Made by a program: the position numbers and the translations under genes
The notes under the pieces: generated by a model
The model's database searches: none
What the model saw: only the letters and a program-made list of their open reading frames with translations
Told to the model about the DNA's origin: nothing
Source: Armatimonadota bacterium
Lineage (GTDB): Bacteria > Armatimonadota > Armatimonadia > Armatimonadales > Armatimonadaceae
Direction: 5' to 3'
NCBI GenBank assembly: GCA_043754515.1
Contig: JAYUUO010000302.1
Coordinates: 1-20,788 of the forward strand
Length of the DNA stretch: 20,788 bases
In this document: positions 1 through 15,101 of the stretch, in pieces
How the letters are laid out: each line of letters begins with the position of its first letter
How positions within the stretch are numbered: the stretch's first letter is position 1

Positions 1-113
1 AAGAAGGAGAAACCACGATGCCGAAATGGGCGCGTTGCGCCCGTCACGAGTGGGGAAAATTAGACCGTTGTTTTGGGGATTTTACTACCGATGTTGACAC
101 TAAAGGCTTGCTT
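1..113 (+). promoter_or_regulatory. Putative CRISPR leader (may extend beyond the window start)
   Basis: Relatively AT-rich, apparently non-coding stretch directly before the first intact repeat. The truncated repeat is at the opposite end of the array and repeats end in GAAAC on +, consistent with the leader being on this side. Confidence 0.6.
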
Positions 114-593
114 CCTCTAATCGAACCAGTGTGGTATGGAAACAACCCTTAGCGACGATATTGCTTGTGATGCCGTTCATCCCTCTAATCGAACCAGTGT
201 GGTATGGAAACTTGAGAAATCCACGCAGAAACAAACGGATACAGTAGACCCTCTAATCGAACCAGTGTGGTATGGAAACGTTGATTGCGTTATATGCCAG
301 TCGGCGGGATATGTGCCTCTAATCGAACCAGTGTGGTATGGAAACAGTCATCACCCGCCCCTCCACTTTTGCCGCCCATATGCCTCTAATCGAACCAGTG
401 TGGTATGGAAACCGCGGCAGGAATTGGGGCGTGTTCGCAGGATCTACCACCCTCTAATCGAACCAGTGTGGTATGGAAACCACAATTCGGTAATAACCTG
501 GTGTCCACCCCGACCCCGCCCTCTAATCGAACCAGTGTGGTATGGAAACTACCGCGATTATCCGTGAAGGGATTACGTGACCTGCGCCTCTAA
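114..593 (+). CRISPR. CRISPR array, repeat CCTCTAATCGAACCAGTGTGGTATGGAAAC (30 bp), 7 full repeats + truncated 8th, 7 spacers
   Basis: Identical repeats at 114-143, 182-211, 250-279, 316-345, 383-412, 451-480 and 520-549; 7-nt stump CCTCTAA at 587-593. Unique spacers of 38, 38, 36, 37, 38, 39 and 37 nt. Repeat length, 3' GAAAC end and weak ACCA-gtg-TGGT palindrome resemble class 1 (I-B/III-like, Cas6-processed) repeats; subtype is an inference. Confidence 0.98.
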
Positions 594-859
594 GTGACTA
601 ACTGCCTGGCCACCACACATTGCGGCCCTCCTTGCGGCACGACGGTGGTAGGCCTATTCGCCTTGGGGGGCGCGGCATCCCCACCGCCGAGCAAGGGTGG
701 CTTCCGCTCCTCTCACGCCGCTTATCGTCAGTTGCCTCGCCTATGTGCCCGCCGTGAATCTGTTCCGGGGCACCGGATACGAGGTCGTTGGCGCGGATGA
801 AGTGGGGTTGGTGATCCTGTCACAGGCAGGGTTACCAGTAGTCGAAGGAACAAAAGATC

Positions 860-6045: not shown

Positions 6046-7299
6046 CTACCGGATCGTCGCCAAGGGCGTGGCGGCGACCTTGGCTTGGGGTTGCCCCCCG
6101 GCTTCCTTTTCCTTCATTAAAGCTAGCACCTCGGGCGGCGTTTTCGTCAGGCCACGCCACTGCGCCGCCGCCTCGTTTACCGGCTCGTAGGAGGGTAGTT
6201 CCGCGGCTATGAACGACTCCTGGAAGCCCTGGGTCGCGACCTTCTTGAGTTCCGTATTCAGAGATACGCCGGGAATCGGGCTAGCCGTTCGGAACGCCGT
6301 TTGTACTCCCGCCTCCATCGCGGATCGCTCGCCAAGGAACTGCATAAAGAGTTTCGCTCCTTTTTTCTGCTCCGGCGAGAGCCAGGGGGCACCGGTGAAA
6401 GCAACGATGCTCATGTCGGTGGTCATCGTGGGGTTGGGATAGATAACCACGAAGTCCGGGTTTTTAATGGCTTCTTTCAGCGCGTTCGACTCGTATGTGT
6501 AGATGAAGTCATATCTCGACGGGTCGGCGACGAACGATTTAACGAGGTCGCTCGATCCTTTAAACGAAGCCTCGTCATAGACATACGACGTGTTCAGATC
6601 CTTAATGTAGTCTTTGAACGGCTTCGACACGACCACTTTGTCCGTGCTACCGAGATCCGGGTGCTTCCCCGAGAAGTCGGTGATGATCATCGAAAGCATC
6701 GTAAATCCCGATCCGGCATTGATCGGGTCGGCGTACGAGTACTTGAGCTTCCCCCACGGGCAGACCGTTTTTCCCGTGGACAGGGCACGCAGGTTGTCGA
6801 GTGTCTTGCCAGGAACCGCGAGTTGCTGTCGCAGGAAGGTTGCTTTCTCCCTCGTGGTCAGGAACACCATCGGAGTTTTGAGGTAGATCTTGTATTCTTC
6901 GGGTCTGCCGACATCGAACAGGTCGGCATGCTTCTGGATCTTCCAGTAATTACCGAGCGCGCCGATCCACTGGGTGGAGGAAGGACCCCACAGCGCGACT
7001 TTCTTTTTGCCATTGATGATGTCCTGGTACGAGTCGCGGGTCTCTCCATACTCGATAACTACTCTCACCCCTTGGTTAGCGTACTCTTTGTTGAATATTT
7101 CCGACTGTTGATCGAGCCAGTCCTTTTTCGTCTGGGAAGTGGCGAACAAAACCTCGCCGCTAATATCCTTCGTCGGATCAACCTGACTGATAATCTTGTC
7201 CTCACCGAGCTTGTGGGATATCGCCCACGCGATAGCGACGACGACCGCGACCAGTCCTATGATGGTGACGATGCCGAGTGGTTTGACTCTGAGTTCCAT
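6046..7299 (-). CDS. Membrane-anchored extracellular solute-binding protein (type II PBP fold, SBP_bac_11-like)
   Basis: N-terminal TM anchor; ATSQTKKDWL, LWGPSSTQW, TPMVF, YADPINAGSG, YTYESNAL, VIYPNPT and QKKGAKLFMQFL motifs resemble SBP domains often associated with vWA proteins. No permease or ATPase genes adjacent. Confidence 0.8.
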   Translation of the reverse strand: MELRVKPLGIVTIIGLVAVVVAIAWAISHKLGEDKIISQVDPTKDISGEVLFATSQTKKDWLDQQSEIFNKEYANQGVRVVIEYGETRDSYQDIINGKKKVALWGPSSTQWIGALGNYWKIQKHADLFDVGRPEEYKIYLKTPMVFLTTREKATFLRQQLAVPGKTLDNLRALSTGKTVCPWGKLKYSYADPINAGSGFTMLSMIITDFSGKHPDLGSTDKVVVSKPFKDYIKDLNTSYVYDEASFKGSSDLVKSFVADPSRYDFIYTYESNALKEAIKNPDFVVIYPNPTMTTDMSIVAFTGAPWLSPEQKKGAKLFMQFLGERSAMEAGVQTAFRTASPIPGVSLNTELKKVATQGFQESFIAAELPSYEPVNEAAAQWRGLTKTPPEVLALMKEKEAGGQPQAKVAATPLATIR

Positions 7300-7430: not shown

Positions 7431-7446
7431 TGGCACGAAAATTGCG
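7431..7446 (+). promoter_or_regulatory. sigma54 (-24/-12) site pointing antisense into the ParB-like gene
   Basis: TGGCACG-AAAA-TTGCG; GG at 7432 and GC at 7444, the exact consensus spacing. Confidence 0.6.
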
Positions 7447-7482
7447 AAAAAAAACACGGCACCTTTTCCGGTAGTGCCGTGT
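7447..7482 (-). terminator. Intrinsic terminator of the ParB-like gene
   Basis: 9-bp stem ACACGGCAC (7454-7462) / GTGCCGTGT (7474-7482) followed on minus by a T run (A8 at 7447-7454 on +); the stem starts 24 nt after the stop codon. Confidence 0.85.
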
Positions 7483-7506
7483 ACTTGTCACAATCTCGTC
7501 ATTCTT

Positions 7507-8703
7507 CTACTTCTCCGCCATTTTCAACTTCATGCTTTGCGGCGTGAATTTAGGCTTGTAAAAGGAGCATTTATAGGAGGGCGAATATTCTTTGGGATTT
7601 TCCGCCTCCGCCAGAAACACCTGTTTGTCGAGTTTAGTACAACGCTCGAACGGCTTGTCATAGTGCCCGCAGTCGTAGCACCGCCGTAACACCGTCCAGC
7701 AGACCGAGCAACGTAGCGACCCGATCAGCTCGATGCGACCGCACAGCGGGCAGTGTATGTACACCTCGCTGAAGCCGTAGTCCTTGTTCTCGAGTGCCTC
7801 GCGCACCTTGTGCGTAAACACTTCCATGTGGCGTGTCGCTTGAGCGACGGTGGCGAGCAACTGGTTCATCTCCTCGTTCGCCAGGAACTCCACGATACGG
7901 TCGTCCATCAGATCCCCGATGGCGGTCATTTGCTTGTCAATCGCCTTCAGATGCTCGCGGGCGGTCTGCGCCCTATACGGGCGTTTGCGCTCCTCTTTGG
8001 CGGTCAGCGAGCGGATCATCTGGTCAGCGACCGACGCCGAGACGTGCAGGAACACCTCTTTTTTGGTTGGGTACTTCTGTATCGCGCTGATGAGTTGCTC
8101 GAGCCCCGTCACCGACAACTTGTCTTTTTTGACTTTGAGCACGAGGCGCATCTGTGTGGACGGATCGTCGTTCAGCGCGATCAGGGCGCGGGCGTGCCCC
8201 TCGTTGAAATTAGTGACCGGCGCGCCGGGGCGCGAGATCAACTCGCTCTGGACATGCGGCGGTAATTCCAGAAGCTCCAACATGCGGCGCACGGTGGTCT
8301 CGGACACGCCGAGGGTCTTCGCTGCCTTCTCATATGTCATGAACTGCAAGAGTCGTTGTACCGCGCGCGCCTTCTCGATGGCGTTCATGTCCTCGCGCTG
8401 GAAGTTTTCCAGCAGTGCGTCGGCGGCGGCTTCCTCGTCGTTGAGGTCGCGGATGACGACCGGCATCTCGGAAAGTCCCGCCATCTTAGAGGCGCGGAAC
8501 CGCCGCTCGCCCATGACGATCTCGTAGCAACCGGCCTTGTCACCCGACAGGGGACGTACCACGATCGGCTGAAGGACACCGCGCTCTTTAATAGAGGCGG
8601 CGAGTTCTTCCAGGCTCTCCTGGTAGAACGTCTTACGCGGCTGATCCTCGGCGGGACGGATCTTTTCAATATCCAGCATGGTCTGCGTTTGCATTTGTGA
8701 CAT
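7507..8703 (-). CDS. ParB/Spo0J-family CTPase-HTH protein with 8-Cys C-terminal extension (398 aa)
   Basis: QPRKTF, LAASIKERGVLQPIVVRP, GERRFRA arginine patch, ENFQREDMNAIEKA, HTH (YEKAAKTLGVSETTVRR), EGHARAL; tail CPLC-CSVC-CYDC-C-C. GAGGAG upstream of ATG 8703. Confidence 0.93.
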   Translation of the reverse strand: MSQMQTQTMLDIEKIRPAEDQPRKTFYQESLEELAASIKERGVLQPIVVRPLSGDKAGCYEIVMGERRFRASKMAGLSEMPVVIRDLNDEEAAADALLENFQREDMNAIEKARAVQRLLQFMTYEKAAKTLGVSETTVRRMLELLELPPHVQSELISRPGAPVTNFNEGHARALIALNDDPSTQMRLVLKVKKDKLSVTGLEQLISAIQKYPTKKEVFLHVSASVADQMIRSLTAKEERKRPYRAQTAREHLKAIDKQMTAIGDLMDDRIVEFLANEEMNQLLATVAQATRHMEVFTHKVREALENKDYGFSEVYIHCPLCGRIELIGSLRCSVCWTVLRRCYDCGHYDKPFERCTKLDKQVFLAEAENPKEYSPSYKCSFYKPKFTPQSMKLKMAEK

Positions 8704-8911
8704 TATAAGAATAGGCTCCTCGCACAGGGGCAGGCGAGGCGCGTGATCCGCTACTCGCCCGTGTCGCCGTCCCGCTCCCGCCATTTGGGGGAGCGGGCGG
8801 GCGACAGGTTTGCCCGTCCGGTGTCACGGTCCCTGAATCGTTCGGGTACCGCCGCGCCGTGTTAATTGCCGAAACGTAATAGTTGCGGCGTTCGTCTGTA
8901 GGCATATGGCT

Positions 8912-8927
8912 TGCAAAAACCATGCCA
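8912..8927 (-). promoter_or_regulatory. sigma54 (-24/-12) promoter for the ParB-like gene
   Basis: Minus strand TGGCATG-GTTT-TTGCA with consensus spacing, about 210 nt upstream of the ATG. Confidence 0.7.
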
Positions 8928-9102
8928 AACGCGGAAAATCTATCGGGCCGACGCGGAACACTCATCCCGCGCCCTGTCGCTCCTCGCGCGGAAGTGCCCG
9001 CCCCAATAGTCGTACCCGTCCCACGTGATTCGCACGTATGCCATCGGAGGGAATACGGCATAACGGCTCGGTGCCGGTGCGCAGGCCATCTTTTTTTTGG
9101 CG

Positions 9103-9118
9103 CGGCACGAATATTGCA
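9103..9118 (+). promoter_or_regulatory. sigma54 (-24/-12) promoter facing parA
   Basis: CGGCACG-AATA-TTGCA; GG at 9104 and GC at 9116; about 310 nt upstream of the ParA ATG. Confidence 0.7.
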
Positions 9119-9425
9119 AATAGTATATATGAGTGATGGCGGACGGTTGATCACGAGAGGTGGCCGCGACGAAAATATACACCTAATATGATGGTAACCC
9201 CGCGACGCGCCCGACGGGTATCCGGTACAATGCCGTTGCGAAGCGCGGCGTGGCGTCGGGTTTCGGTGCGCTATTGTAACAGAGCAAGGCGCGGTACTGC
9301 AATTATTTCCGCCGGGTGCCGATACTCTTAACAGGATGCGCGAGGCGTGAACAACGCCACATGCCCATCGGGGCGACCTCGCGCCAGTTTATATCACAAG
9401 TTTACGACTGATTTTGGGGGAACGT

Positions 9426-10187
9426 ATGCGAATTATTACCATCGCGCAGCAGAAAGGCGGCGTCGGCAAGACGACTTCCACCGTGAATATCGCTGCCGGT
9501 CTTGCACAAAAAGGACTGCGGGTACTCGCGGTGGACGCCGACCCACAGGGTTCGATGACGCTCGCGCTCGGGACCGACCCGAACGAGGTCGAAGTCACCA
9601 TCGGGGACGCGATGCTGTCTGGCTTGCCGGTGCCGACGCAGCCGACCCAGGTGCCGAATCTCGACCTGTGCCCGGCGTCCCGGCTTCTCGCGGACACCGA
9701 GTTCTTGCTCGTCCCGAAGACAGGGCGCGAGCGGTTCATGGCGCGCGCACTCGAGGACGTGCGCGGCGAGTACGACTGGGTGATCATTGACGCGCCCCCG
9801 TCCCTCGGCCTGATTACGATCAACTCGATGGTCGCGTCACAATATCTGTTCGTGCCTGTGACCCCCGCGCTCCTTTCCGCCGCGGGTCTGCGCGATCTGC
9901 TACAGACGGTGGAGGAAGTGCGGCAGGGCGGGCTGAACCCGAAACTGCTACTCGGCGGGATTTTCGTAACATTCGCCGATTCGCGGACCGTTGCCGCGCG
10001 GCGCACCGAATCGGAACTGCGCGAAGACCTCGGCGACCTGATCATGGAGACCACGATCGGGCGACGCATCGCGCATGAGTACGCCGCGCAGGCGGGATTG
10101 CCCGCCCTAGTCGCCGATCCGACCAGCATGGCGGCGACAGAATATCGTAACCTAACGGAGGAGGTACTGCAACGTGCCAATAAGTAA
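9426..10187 (+). CDS. parA: ParA/Soj-family ATPase (253 aa)
   Basis: Deviant Walker A KGGVGKTT, VDADPQGS, YDWVIIDAPPSLG; GGGGGA RBS before ATG 9426. Confidence 0.95.
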   Translation: MRIITIAQQKGGVGKTTSTVNIAAGLAQKGLRVLAVDADPQGSMTLALGTDPNEVEVTIGDAMLSGLPVPTQPTQVPNLDLCPASRLLADTEFLLVPKTGRERFMARALEDVRGEYDWVIIDAPPSLGLITINSMVASQYLFVPVTPALLSAAGLRDLLQTVEEVRQGGLNPKLLLGGIFVTFADSRTVAARRTESELREDLGDLIMETTIGRRIAHEYAAQAGLPALVADPTSMAATEYRNLTEEVLQRANK

Positions 10188-10524
10188 CGGGAAGATGCCG
10201 CACCGCAGGGTGCTTCTGACGCAACCTTCGAACGAGGTCGAGATGGCGGACGCGCCCGCCGCGCCCGCGCCGTCCGTCGCCGCCAACCTGGAGAACGACG
10301 CGTCCGCCGTGCGCGTGATCGCCTACTTGACCCAGGAAGAGGGTGCCCGCATGGAGCAGACCTGGCTCCAGATGCGTGGCTTCGGGATCCGCTCTAGCAA
10401 AGCTGATATCGTACGCGCCGCGCTCCTGATGGCTCTCGACAACGAGGAAGCCCTGCGCGAACAGCTACAGGGCGCGAGTACCGGCAATAGGGCGGTAGTC
10501 GCGTCTATCGCGGGGCGCAAATAG
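10174..10524 (+). CDS. Small ParA partner, probable ribbon-helix-helix (ParG-like) DNA-binding protein (116 aa)
   Basis: GTG start with GGAGGAGG 9 nt upstream, overlapping the parA 3' end; flexible Pro/Ala N-terminus then strand-helix-helix pattern (VRVIAYLT-QEEGARMEQTWLQM...SKADIVRAALLMAL), the layout of type Ib partition cassettes. Confidence 0.7.
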   Translation: MPISNGKMPHRRVLLTQPSNEVEMADAPAAPAPSVAANLENDASAVRVIAYLTQEEGARMEQTWLQMRGFGIRSSKADIVRAALLMALDNEEALREQLQGASTGNRAVVASIAGRK

Positions 10525-10571: not shown

Positions 10572-11328
10572 CTACTCCCCGTCGTCAGTGGCGGACGCGG
10601 CGTCCGTAAGCACCCCCGTAGTATCGGGGGCATAAGGCTGTGAGTGGCTGAAATGCTCCCCCCAATTGGCGACGTACTTTCCGGCGAGCGCGGGGTCGTG
10701 GACGATGACCACGTTCTCCGCGTTTTTAGTTTCGCCCCCCTTGGTAAAGTTCATGCTTCCGGTGACCACCACCTCGGAATCAACGATGATCACCTTGTTG
10801 TGGGCGAGCTTATGTTGTCTGTCCACTCCCGTTTCTACTCCGGTATTCGCGACGTAAGTTGCTTTGTTGCCGGACTCGTTGAGCCGTGATGGACATAGAA
10901 GCACGCGCACCATCACGCTGCGCCGGTGCGCCGCGACGAGTGCTTCCGCGATGGGCCTACTGGTAAAACTGTAAGCCTGAACCAGCATGCTCTTCATTTG
11001 CGCCCGCGATCTGCGCGACCAGGGCGTCCACGCAACCGCCGTTCGGTGAGAAACATACCTGCACCGAGCGCGGTACGGAAGCCTTTTCCCGCGCCTCGAA
11101 GCCGAAGCGATAGGCGAGGAACGTGGCAATCGGTAGCGCGACGAGCGCGGTCACCAGGCCGATGCGCCCTGCGCGGGTGCGTGCGCCGAGCAAACCGAGC
11201 AGAACAATAACCACGCCGAACAAGCCGGAGAGAATGTACAGGGTCGGAACAAAGAAGGTCGCCGTGACTGCGGCAAGCCCGGTTATGCCAAGGAAGAGCG
11301 AGGAGCGACCCCACAAGACAGGATTCAT
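10572..11328 (-). pseudogene. Membrane-anchored PLD-family (Nuc-like HKD) endonuclease, frameshifted by one extra base near 10996
   Basis: One frame gives about 3 TM segments then VQVCFSPNGGCVDALVAQIAGA; another frame continues KSMLVQAYSFTS...HNKVIIVD...TGSMNFT...NAEN. Removing base 10996 yields ..IAGAKKSMLVQAYSF. AAGGAG precedes ATG 11328. Could also be a sequencing error. Confidence 0.8.
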
Positions 11329-11472
11329 ACGCCAAAACTCCTTTGTCCGCGAGGTCCACCCCCCACGGGTCGAGCCGAACAAGTCGGCCACCCCTCACGC
11401 CGGGGCGATTGCGTCGTAGTCAGGTGCTTACCCGGCGAGCCGTTCGGCGGGCGCGTCGGTGCAGGACGCGAA

Positions 11473-14430: not shown

Positions 14431-14817
14431 TTACTGTTGTGCGCGGATCTCGCTCGCTTCGTCGCCAGTGAGAGGGGCGCGGCTGGCGTGGCGGATGTGA
14501 ACGATTGAGACGCGCGGGCCGTCCAGCCCATCCCTGACCGCGAAGTAGATCAGGTGGTAGGCGACCGCGCTGTCCCTGGACAGCCTCGCCAGCACCCGCC
14601 GCACCGGGCAGCCCAGCACCGCCGACTTGTGCTCCGCAACCGCGTAACGCTCCGGGTTTTGGTTGAGCGAAGCCGCATCTTCCCGCACTCTCCGGTAGAG
14701 CAAAGCGGCACGGGACTCGTCCCCCGTTCTATGCGCGTAATCTACCACGGCTATATTCAGGTCTCGCTCTGCGCGTGGCGACAAGCGAATGCTATATCGT
14801 AGCGGGACCTCACTCAT
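14431..14817 (-). CDS. Type II toxin, RelE/ParE family (128 aa)
   Basis: YSIRLSPRAERDL...LNQNPERY...VRRVL...YHLIY...VSIVHIRHASR; ATG 14817 overlaps the antitoxin stop (ATGA). Confidence 0.9.
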   Translation of the reverse strand: MSEVPLRYSIRLSPRAERDLNIAVVDYAHRTGDESRAALLYRRVREDAASLNQNPERYAVAEHKSAVLGCPVRRVLARLSRDSAVAYHLIYFAVRDGLDGPRVSIVHIRHASRAPLTGDEASEIRAQQ

Positions 14818-15101
14818 AGCTTGTTGCCGCGCGTTCGCTTCCACTCCGCGAGGGACGCCGCGATGTGCTCGTCTACCTCCTCCAGAGTGTAGCTCTCCCC
14901 TGCTTGTAACTGTGCAATGCCTTCCTGCACGGTGGCGAACGTGTCCGCGTCCATCCGCTCGTCACCAGGCACCGACTCGAATACCCACTCGCCGTTCTCC
15001 GGATAATCGAAGTGACTGAAGAGTCGCTCGCGCCGCGCTTCGGGCAGTTGCTGGACGAGCGCGATGATCTGCTCGTCGGTCAGGTCAATCGTTAAAGTCA
15101 T
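14814..15101 (-). CDS. Cognate antitoxin (acidic, 95 aa)
   Basis: Small acidic ORF translationally coupled upstream of the toxin; C-terminal VQEGIAQLQAGESYTLEEV is typical of ParD-like antitoxins. Confidence 0.8.
   Translation of the reverse strand: MTLTIDLTDEQIIALVQQLPEARRERLFSHFDYPENGEWVFESVPGDERMDADTFATVQEGIAQLQAGESYTLEEVDEHIAASLAEWKRTRGNKL

Follow-up and report, generated by a model that had tools for sequence, protein, structure and literature searches.

ParB-type CTPase clamps include KorB and VirB beside Noc, and a ParA ATPase followed by a small ribbon–helix–helix (RHH) partner is the layout of plasmid type Ib partition. The present study concerns a locus of an Armatimonadota bacterium in which relatives of both lie back to back. 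Within a stretch of 20,788 nucleotides (GCA_043754515.1, contig JAYUUO010000302.1; hereafter the window), an orphan ParB with an eight-cysteine tail (ParB copy B) and a ParA/Soj-family ATPase (ParA2) with its small partner are encoded divergently, and each side has a σ54 -24/-12 box aimed at it. From sequence comparisons we lean toward a reading in which these are two accessory chromosomal modules, likely co-induced by back-to-back σ54 promoters and probably reorganizing or positioning the nucleoid, and not one ParABS machine.

Like Noc and the orphan ParB clamps covered in the main text of 10.1101/2025.10.10.680097, ParB copy B has a ParB-type N-terminal fold and a helix–turn–helix (HTH), is a duplicate encoded outside parAB, and lacks the LG(R/K)GL motif. 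Unlike Noc, it has no amphipathic extension, scores under the Noc cut-off, and carries a different recognition helix; its dimerization domain is replaced by a helical bundle plus an eight-cysteine domain, and one of the two genomic copies is σ54-boxed. As in the type Ib systems ParF/ParG (TP228) and delta/omega and in archaeal SegAB, ParA2 is a short ATPase of Walker type, and the small protein encoded after it has a basic N-terminal arm and an RHH-like core; a small basic-armed partner also accompanies the orphan ParA/MinD ATPases of McdAB, PpfA, and ParC/ParP, as these are described in parts of PMC9178275 and 10.1101/2022.06.09.495121. Unlike the type Ib and McdAB-type pairs, ParA2 is chromosomal and Soj-like (~40%), no centromere array was found, and the arm of its partner is a new motif that other families combine with different C-terminal domains. 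The apparently sole σ54 activator of the genome resembles FlgS/FlgR of Helicobacter and CtcB/CtcC of Chlamydia, in the accounts that sections of PMC7175178, PMC3162934, and PMC7482065 give of them, in that it has no DNA-binding domain and lies beside a kinase; unlike FlgR/CtcC, activators of this type carry a SAFTGA/NAFTGA loop, belong to a lineage in which no flagellar export gene was found, and are predicted to act on Par-family and envelope genes and on sigma factors, among others. With canonical ParABS the window locus shares ParB_N and HTH domains and a Soj-like ATPase; unlike ParABS, its genes are divergent and not co-transcribed, with no parS and no LGRGL.

Literature searches of open-access full text did not find Par-family genes under σ54, and the main text of 10.1101/2025.10.10.680097 contains neither "armatimonad" nor "zinc." What appears to be new here is the predicted σ54 wiring of a ParB duplicate, together with the ParA-partner family. 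Through the locus, the role of an orphan ParB that occurs across the phylum becomes open to testing: with one copy behind a likely σ70-type promoter and the duplicate predicted to be inducible, the condition that induces it should indicate what the protein does. The analysis further defines a ParA-partner motif that recurs beside different cargo domains, and it sketches a σ54 regulon for a phylum with almost no regulatory data.

The σ54 boxes and the σ54 system

The window corresponds to contig C302 of genome G000, an assembly of 5.13 Mb and 92.7% completeness; genera, families, genomes, loci, and contigs are labeled g, f, G, L, and C below, the window genome belonging to g1 of family f1. Genes outside the window come from a hexamer-based caller (4667 genes called), and counts that depend on it are approximate because it missed at least the canonical parA. 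ParB copy B lies at 7507-8703 on the minus strand (398 aa; Pfam, a 69-homolog alignment, a structure model, and trees), its start likely being the ATG at 8703 since relatives start at the equivalent codon. The parA2 gene occupies 9426-10187 on the plus strand (253 aa; Pfam, homolog identity, and alignment), the partner gene follows at 10174-10524 (plus strand; 116 aa), and the gap between ParB copy B and parA2 (8704-9425) spans 722 nt. Within it, a box toward ParB copy B (TGGCATGGTTTTTGCA, 8927-8912, minus strand; 21.7 bits) predicts a transcription start near 8901 (-), and a box toward parA2 (CGGCACGAATATTGCA, 9103-9118, plus strand; 22.8 bits) predicts one near 9129 (+). A third, perfect box (TGGCACGAAAATTGCG, 7431-7446, plus strand; 25.5 bits) points antisense at the likely terminator of the ParB gene and into its 3′ end. 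The boxes of the locus follow the GG-N10-GC consensus.

The initial annotation had described this layout, the gap, and the three boxes, all of which were re-located on the sequence, and had judged the boxes unrivaled in the window. With a σ54 weight matrix trained on 35 other oriented, intergenic sites of the window genome, they do rank first to third, the next-best site scoring 13.8 bits. It had also called for the genome-wide background: 37 sites reach at least 20 bits, so that under a uniform model two within 1.7 kb have P ~7e-5 and three have P ~3e-7, values that overstate significance because the stretch was chosen after the fact. As to conservation, the divergent layout is present in 6/6 g1/g3 genomes, from two genera (G000-G003, G005, G016); the ParB-side box is kept in all six (13-22 bits, doubled in three g1 genomes), and the parA-side box scores 18-23 bits in 4/4 g1 genomes and is also strong in the metagenome loci L380 and L384. 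In the intergenic alignment these boxes form conserved islands amid otherwise divergent DNA. The box at 7431, initially counted as further support, gives none because it is antisense and unique to the window genome, with no counterpart in 3/3 same-genus relatives (best scores 2.7, -1.7, and -7.2), and we treat it as a probable private gain.

The rpoN gene is present on C22 with all three Pfam domains (266 bits, slightly below the 277 cut-off). As to the enhancer-binding ATPase that the initial annotation named as a requirement, the single σ54 activator detected in the genome lies on C66 beside a GAF-HisKA-HATPase kinase (C66:8716-11484; L231, L008), and it consists of a receiver and an AAA+ domain in the group 5 architecture of FlgR/CtcC, with no HTH or other DNA-binding domain, so that no enhancer is expected. 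The activator is found at E<=1e-30 in 38/41 relatives, nearly always as a single copy, and is missing together with rpoN in G011 and G013. It ends 38-56 residues past WxGNxREL in 24 of the 28 loci read (of 30 loci); three others lack an exact WxGNxREL but have a similar length, and one ran off its locus. The first position of its GAFTGA loop is S or N (one G) in all loci read, with SAFTGA in the window genome.

Strict σ54 boxes number 40 in the genome against 10 for the reversed pattern. Thirty-three of the 40 are intergenic, where intergenic DNA makes up ~18% of the genome, 29 of these 33 aim at a same-strand gene, and the 1501 tandem gaps hold 12 sense boxes versus 1 antisense. No such excess is seen in G011 and G013 (11 vs 38 and 7 vs 10 reversed). 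Boxed genes in the window genome (33 operons scanned) encode GGDEF/EAL, STAS, LuxR, LCP, and PEP-CTERM proteins, a mannosyltransferase, and many unknown proteins, to which relatives add exopolysaccharide genes (30 of 62 target open reading frames, ORFs, scanned). Among sigma genes, a group-2-like one is preceded by a box of 15.4 bits and a SigB/F/G-like one by a weak box of 10.1 bits, each strict in one relative. Boxes before alternative sigma genes (G000 C202:5556-6548 and C10:10780-12219; L341) and, in G010, before rpoN itself suggest a σ54-to-sigma cascade. With sigma, cyclic di-GMP (c-di-GMP), and envelope genes boxed, the σ54-on state would more likely be one of surface attachment or stress than of motility. 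Flagellar or chemotaxis cargo was considered and rejected, since neither FlhA nor CheW was found in the window genome at its 92.7% completeness; FlhA was found in 0/7 g1-g3 relatives.

On this sequence evidence, σ54-dependent transcription of ParB copy B is likely, and that of parA2 is probable, with rather less confidence.

ParB copy B, ParA2, and the ParA2 partner

ParB copy B comprises a ParB_N fold, an HTH, a helical bundle, and a putative double zinc ribbon with a further Cys pair or singlets. Eight Cys of the tail are invariant in 69 aligned homologs, in which Boxes I-III are also intact (ELAASIxERGVL, GERRxRA, and ENxxR conserved). The structure model (predicted local distance difference test, pLDDT, 84) best matches Noc, Spo0J, and KorB; the protein reaches 185.9 bits against TIGR04285 (Noc), under the 315 cut-off, and begins ~8 residues ahead of the fold, with no N-terminal membrane helix or amphipathic extension. 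For the fold of the cysteine tail, whole-model structure searches gave no match among those listed, and Atlas gave leads below 0.9 at best. A second copy in the genome (copy A), on C178, is 64% identical. The LG(R/K)GL ParA-binding motif is missing from copies A and B and present in the canonical ParB on C222, and the recognition helix SETT(V/I)RR is common to both copies (SETTVRR in the window protein), versus SRVSVAN in the canonical protein. We infer that copies A and B have a common non-parS target and have diverged through their promoters. Copy-A genes carry CTTAA(A/C)-N15/16-GCCATAAT ~95-120 nt upstream (L002, L259, L258, L260, L176), likely a σ70-type promoter. Upstream of copy A and parA, the GCCATAAT/GCCGATAAT boxes might be taken as σ28-like, but this was given up because they show no strand bias genome-wide.

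Close relatives of ParB copy B come from Armatimonadota, Armatimonadaceae, and Capsulimonadaceae, and the C-terminal part of this ParB-zinc family has matches in 100/301 phylum genomes, 77 at E <1e-30 and 23 weak, the latter including small stand-alone cysteine proteins. The protein is an Armatimonadota-wide orphan ParB, of which the window gene is a family-level duplicate: a quick tree and a FastTree tree, the latter with long-branch warnings, place it in the well-supported family-f1 clade B. When a gene is called boxed for a σ54 score of at least 12 bits within 450 nt upstream (~top 1-2% of all genes), 8/16 clade-B rows are boxed (g1 4/4, g3 2/2, g2 1/2, g8 1/1, g6 0/5, g10 0/2), versus 0/17 in sister clade A, 0/5 in other f1, and 2/28 in family f2. 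Three g6 clade-B rows retain CTGGCAYG without a -12 element and are possibly decayed boxes. Two side observations concern this family. Stand-alone proteins matching the cysteine tail alone occur several per genome (G178:C35:8312-8536, G162:C1) in family f25, most of which has no rpoN, and g3 has a third ParB-zinc paralog (L257:4261-6576, L466), with a long N-terminal extension in G005 (772 aa).

ParA2 is short, with AAA_31 from residue 1, no N-terminal HTH, and ~40% identity to Soj. It keeps the deviant Walker A motif KGGVGKT and arginines at two positions that we take to be the DNA-binding positions of Soj. It forms a separate Armatimonadota clade (83 matches at >=56% identity, followed by a drop to 42%) and was found in 10/301 phylum genomes, with up to 8 candidates scored per genome. 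In 13/13 cases examined, the start of the partner gene (a GTG in the window) overlaps the parA stop, and its product carries the arm [RK]P[HR][RK]RxxL[TS]xP, conserved in the window as the N-terminal PHRRxxLTxP (10198-10227, plus strand) and succeeded there by a variable linker and the RHH-like core. A profile search gave 47 representatives, of which 42 were aligned and have a conserved beta-helix-helix core; RHH_1 matches weakly in 5/43 homologs (best E 0.0024), the model is of low confidence (pLDDT 51), no PDB match was found, and Atlas gave the lead PF18064. The arm occurs two to three times in family f3 partners, and in f7 it is attached to a non-RHH domain. As portions of 10.1101/2022.06.09.495121 and PMC9178275 describe, partners engage ParA/MinD (A/D) ATPases through a basic N-terminal arm. 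Because the arm is present in 13/13 partners, repeated in f3, and fused in f7, it fits the A/D-ATPase partner rule as given in sections of 10.1101/2022.06.09.495121. In the f7 proteins (L245:6050-7021, L246:4840-5385), the arm is joined to two parts, a coiled coil and a domain of glycine-rich beta repeats that Pfam does not match, which suggests a non-DNA cargo. In G041 (L248:6530-13945), as read from sequence, parA2 and its partner precede pilT-type ATPase-like and pilM/N/O-like genes.

Two modules or one machine

The initial annotation held that the locus does not serve housekeeping segregation and that the window has neither parS nor a rep gene, and both points hold. A separate canonical parA-parB pair lies on C222, its ParB having LGRGL and the ParB dimerization domain. 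C222, C281, C303, and C304 carry ten parS-like sites between them; the best parS match in the window has 5 mismatches, and a Pfam scan of 18 window ORFs found no replication or integrase family. Its view of the three genes as one functional module fares less well. The two halves look co-regulated rather than parts of one machine, because no ParA-binding motif is present in the ParB and each of the halves is found alone in other genomes.

Under the two-module reading, the GAF histidine kinase on C66 would phosphorylate the sole activator found, which, having no DNA-binding domain, would fire any σ54-bound promoter without an enhancer. ParB copy B may then act as a nucleotide-gated DNA clamp at a non-parS site, as a regulated supplement to the conserved copy A; because the ParA-binding motif is missing, it would not drive either ParA. 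ParA2 would coat the nucleoid, with the PHRRxxLTxP arm of the partner acting as its stimulator, and the RHH-like domain of the partner may hold on to a DNA site that serves as cargo or operator. Alternative sigma factors and c-di-GMP enzymes would come on with the same switch, as would envelope genes.

Several observations weigh against this proposal. Of the σ54 wiring of parA claimed initially, the box stands and is strong in g1, but it falls to 10.1 and 5.8 bits in g3 and has no counterpart in g2 or in five distant genomes; the parA leader also contains a housekeeping-type -10 element (GGTACAAT, 9224-9231, plus strand) that may be a second promoter. GGTACAAT is the most strand-biased upstream 8-mer of the genome (across 1501 gaps it occurs 35 times in sense and twice in antisense); housekeeping-type -10 elements occur in the parA leaders of G000, G005, and G016, and the one at 9224-9231 is not kept in the other g1 genomes (n=3). 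Half of the clade-B copies are unboxed (g6, g10, and one g2 genome). Predicted regulon targets overlap little between genomes, so that the σ54-on state is only loosely defined. Several rpoN-positive genomes show little or no excess of strict boxes (G004 13 vs 21, G005 10 vs 10, G014 7 vs 21, and G001 27 vs 21), which makes the reversed-pattern control noisy, and the SAFTGA loop is rated only "putative" functional in a passage of PMC3162934. For the DNA-binding proteins, no palindrome common across genera was found upstream of 70 ParB-zinc family genes, and locus and genome scans found no binding site for either protein. Orphan ParBs are common and their nucleotide specificity is not predictable from sequence, according to the main text of 10.1101/2025.10.10.680097. 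Finally, the kin genomes are not independent samples.

The alternative that survives best, although unlikely, is that the ParB copy, ParA2, and the partner work as a single unit, a second and conditional system for partition or nucleoid anchoring in which the ParA-stimulating arm missing from the ParB comes from the partner. The divergent co-boxed layout of the six g1/g3 genomes fits such a machine, as do the ~7.5 kb that separate the two halves on one contig in G004; in G015 and f7, however, the genes are on separate contigs. Of 14 metagenome loci with ParA2 at >=63%, three have a divergent ParB (L384 and two close to the g3 type, which are not independent), L380 is too short for ParB but has both boxes, L385 has 2.9 kb upstream without a ParB, and most others are short. 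Within f1, ParA2 was found only in genomes with a clade-B copy, yet no partner match was obtained for eight clade-B rows (g6, g8, and g10), three ParA2 genomes come from families without a detected ParB-zinc tail (f3 0/3, f5 0/27), and across the phylum ParB-zinc is strong in 77/301 genomes versus 10/301 for ParA2. In one g1 genome the cassette (L048) adjoins canonical parAB and two parS sites, a hint of origin proximity in that genome only.

It is slightly less probable that ParA2 and its partner are a domesticated mobile type Ib cassette, which would mostly autoregulate or interfere with plasmids, its position and box being incidental and new boxes cheap under an enhancer-free activator. The type Ib-like gene layout, the PF18064 lead, and the patchy distribution of ParA2 suit this account, as does the fast turnover of boxes, exemplified by the perfect, unconserved box at 7431. 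Against these stand the absence of any close plasmid relative (best 41%; the 5000 records counted were all <60%) and of any viral match, the 83-98% identity of ParA2 across three genera, and a window without rep, integrase, or guanine–cytosine (GC) anomaly; no repeat array or iteron-like repeats that might serve the partner or ParA2 as a centromere were found near the genes, though short degenerate sites could escape the scan. More doubtful still is a far-reaching version of the single machine, a σ54-induced second chromosome-positioning machine in which arm and clamp are split between the RHH adaptor and the zinc-tailed ParB, within an undescribed developmental or resting program of non-flagellated Armatimonadota that would be governed by a single enhancer-free activator. 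Very improbable, lastly, is that the boxes bind σ54 holoenzyme as repressive roadblocks or stay silent under a weak SAFTGA activator, the genes being read from σ70-type promoters: the non-canonical first loop position and the -10 elements in the parA leaders of G000, G005, and G016 allow for this, but S or N is usual at that position in the activators read, N is natural there in other sole activators treated in part of PMC3162934, boxes genome-wide are strongly oriented toward genes, and in most clade-B leaders no housekeeping-type -10 was found between box and start.

Other features of the window and its relatives

The parA leader of g1 genomes contains a conserved block at 9273-9330 (plus strand; ATTGTAAC...CTGCAATT...GCCGAYA), seen in the intergenic alignment and a motif scan, which is a candidate weak promoter or a candidate operator of the RHH-like partner. 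Downstream of ParB copy B, a hairpin with a T-run (7447-7482, minus strand; 9-bp perfect arms at 7454-7462/7474-7482) is a likely terminator; the T-run is kept in 4/4 g1 genomes, and the hairpin at 7454-7482 was overlooked by the σ70/terminator scan. The predicted ParB 5′ leader contains a GC-rich hairpin (8762-8806; 18-nt arms, 89% complementary) that is not evidently conserved, and an Rfam scan gave no match. Three RNA runs were inspected; their contigs were of low depth and gave nothing on transcription starts, strand, or level, and two of the runs are probably DNA.

Palindromes enriched genome-wide proved to be CRISPR repeats or dispersed repeats, the dispersed ones having no copy in the window. 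One dispersed repeat of G000, at least 44 nt long with the core TCAAAAC-NN-GTTTTGA, has 33 copies, nearly all intergenic (C26:16072, C33:23341, C84:16583), and related families, likewise with none in the window, have the forms GGCAAAAC-NN-GTTTTGCC, TCGAAAC-NN-GTTTCGA, and TTCGCA-N4-TGCGAA. A CRISPR array with ~seven copies of the repeat CCTCTAATCGAACCAGTGTGGTATGGAAAC lies at the contig start (window 1-600), in a window without a cas gene.

The window contig also carries secA and other core-type genes. The ParB copy is followed in g1 and G015 by a gene for a solute-binding-like protein with an N-terminal membrane segment (window 6046-7299, minus strand), and in other genera by a different conserved gene of no assigned role. 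A ParE-like toxin gene with a small upstream partner (14431-15101, minus strand) lies directly downstream of secA, and a PLD-family nuclease-like ORF (10572-11391, minus strand) converges on the ParA2 partner gene and has an overlapping upstream ORF in another frame, possibly reflecting a frameshift or a misplaced start.

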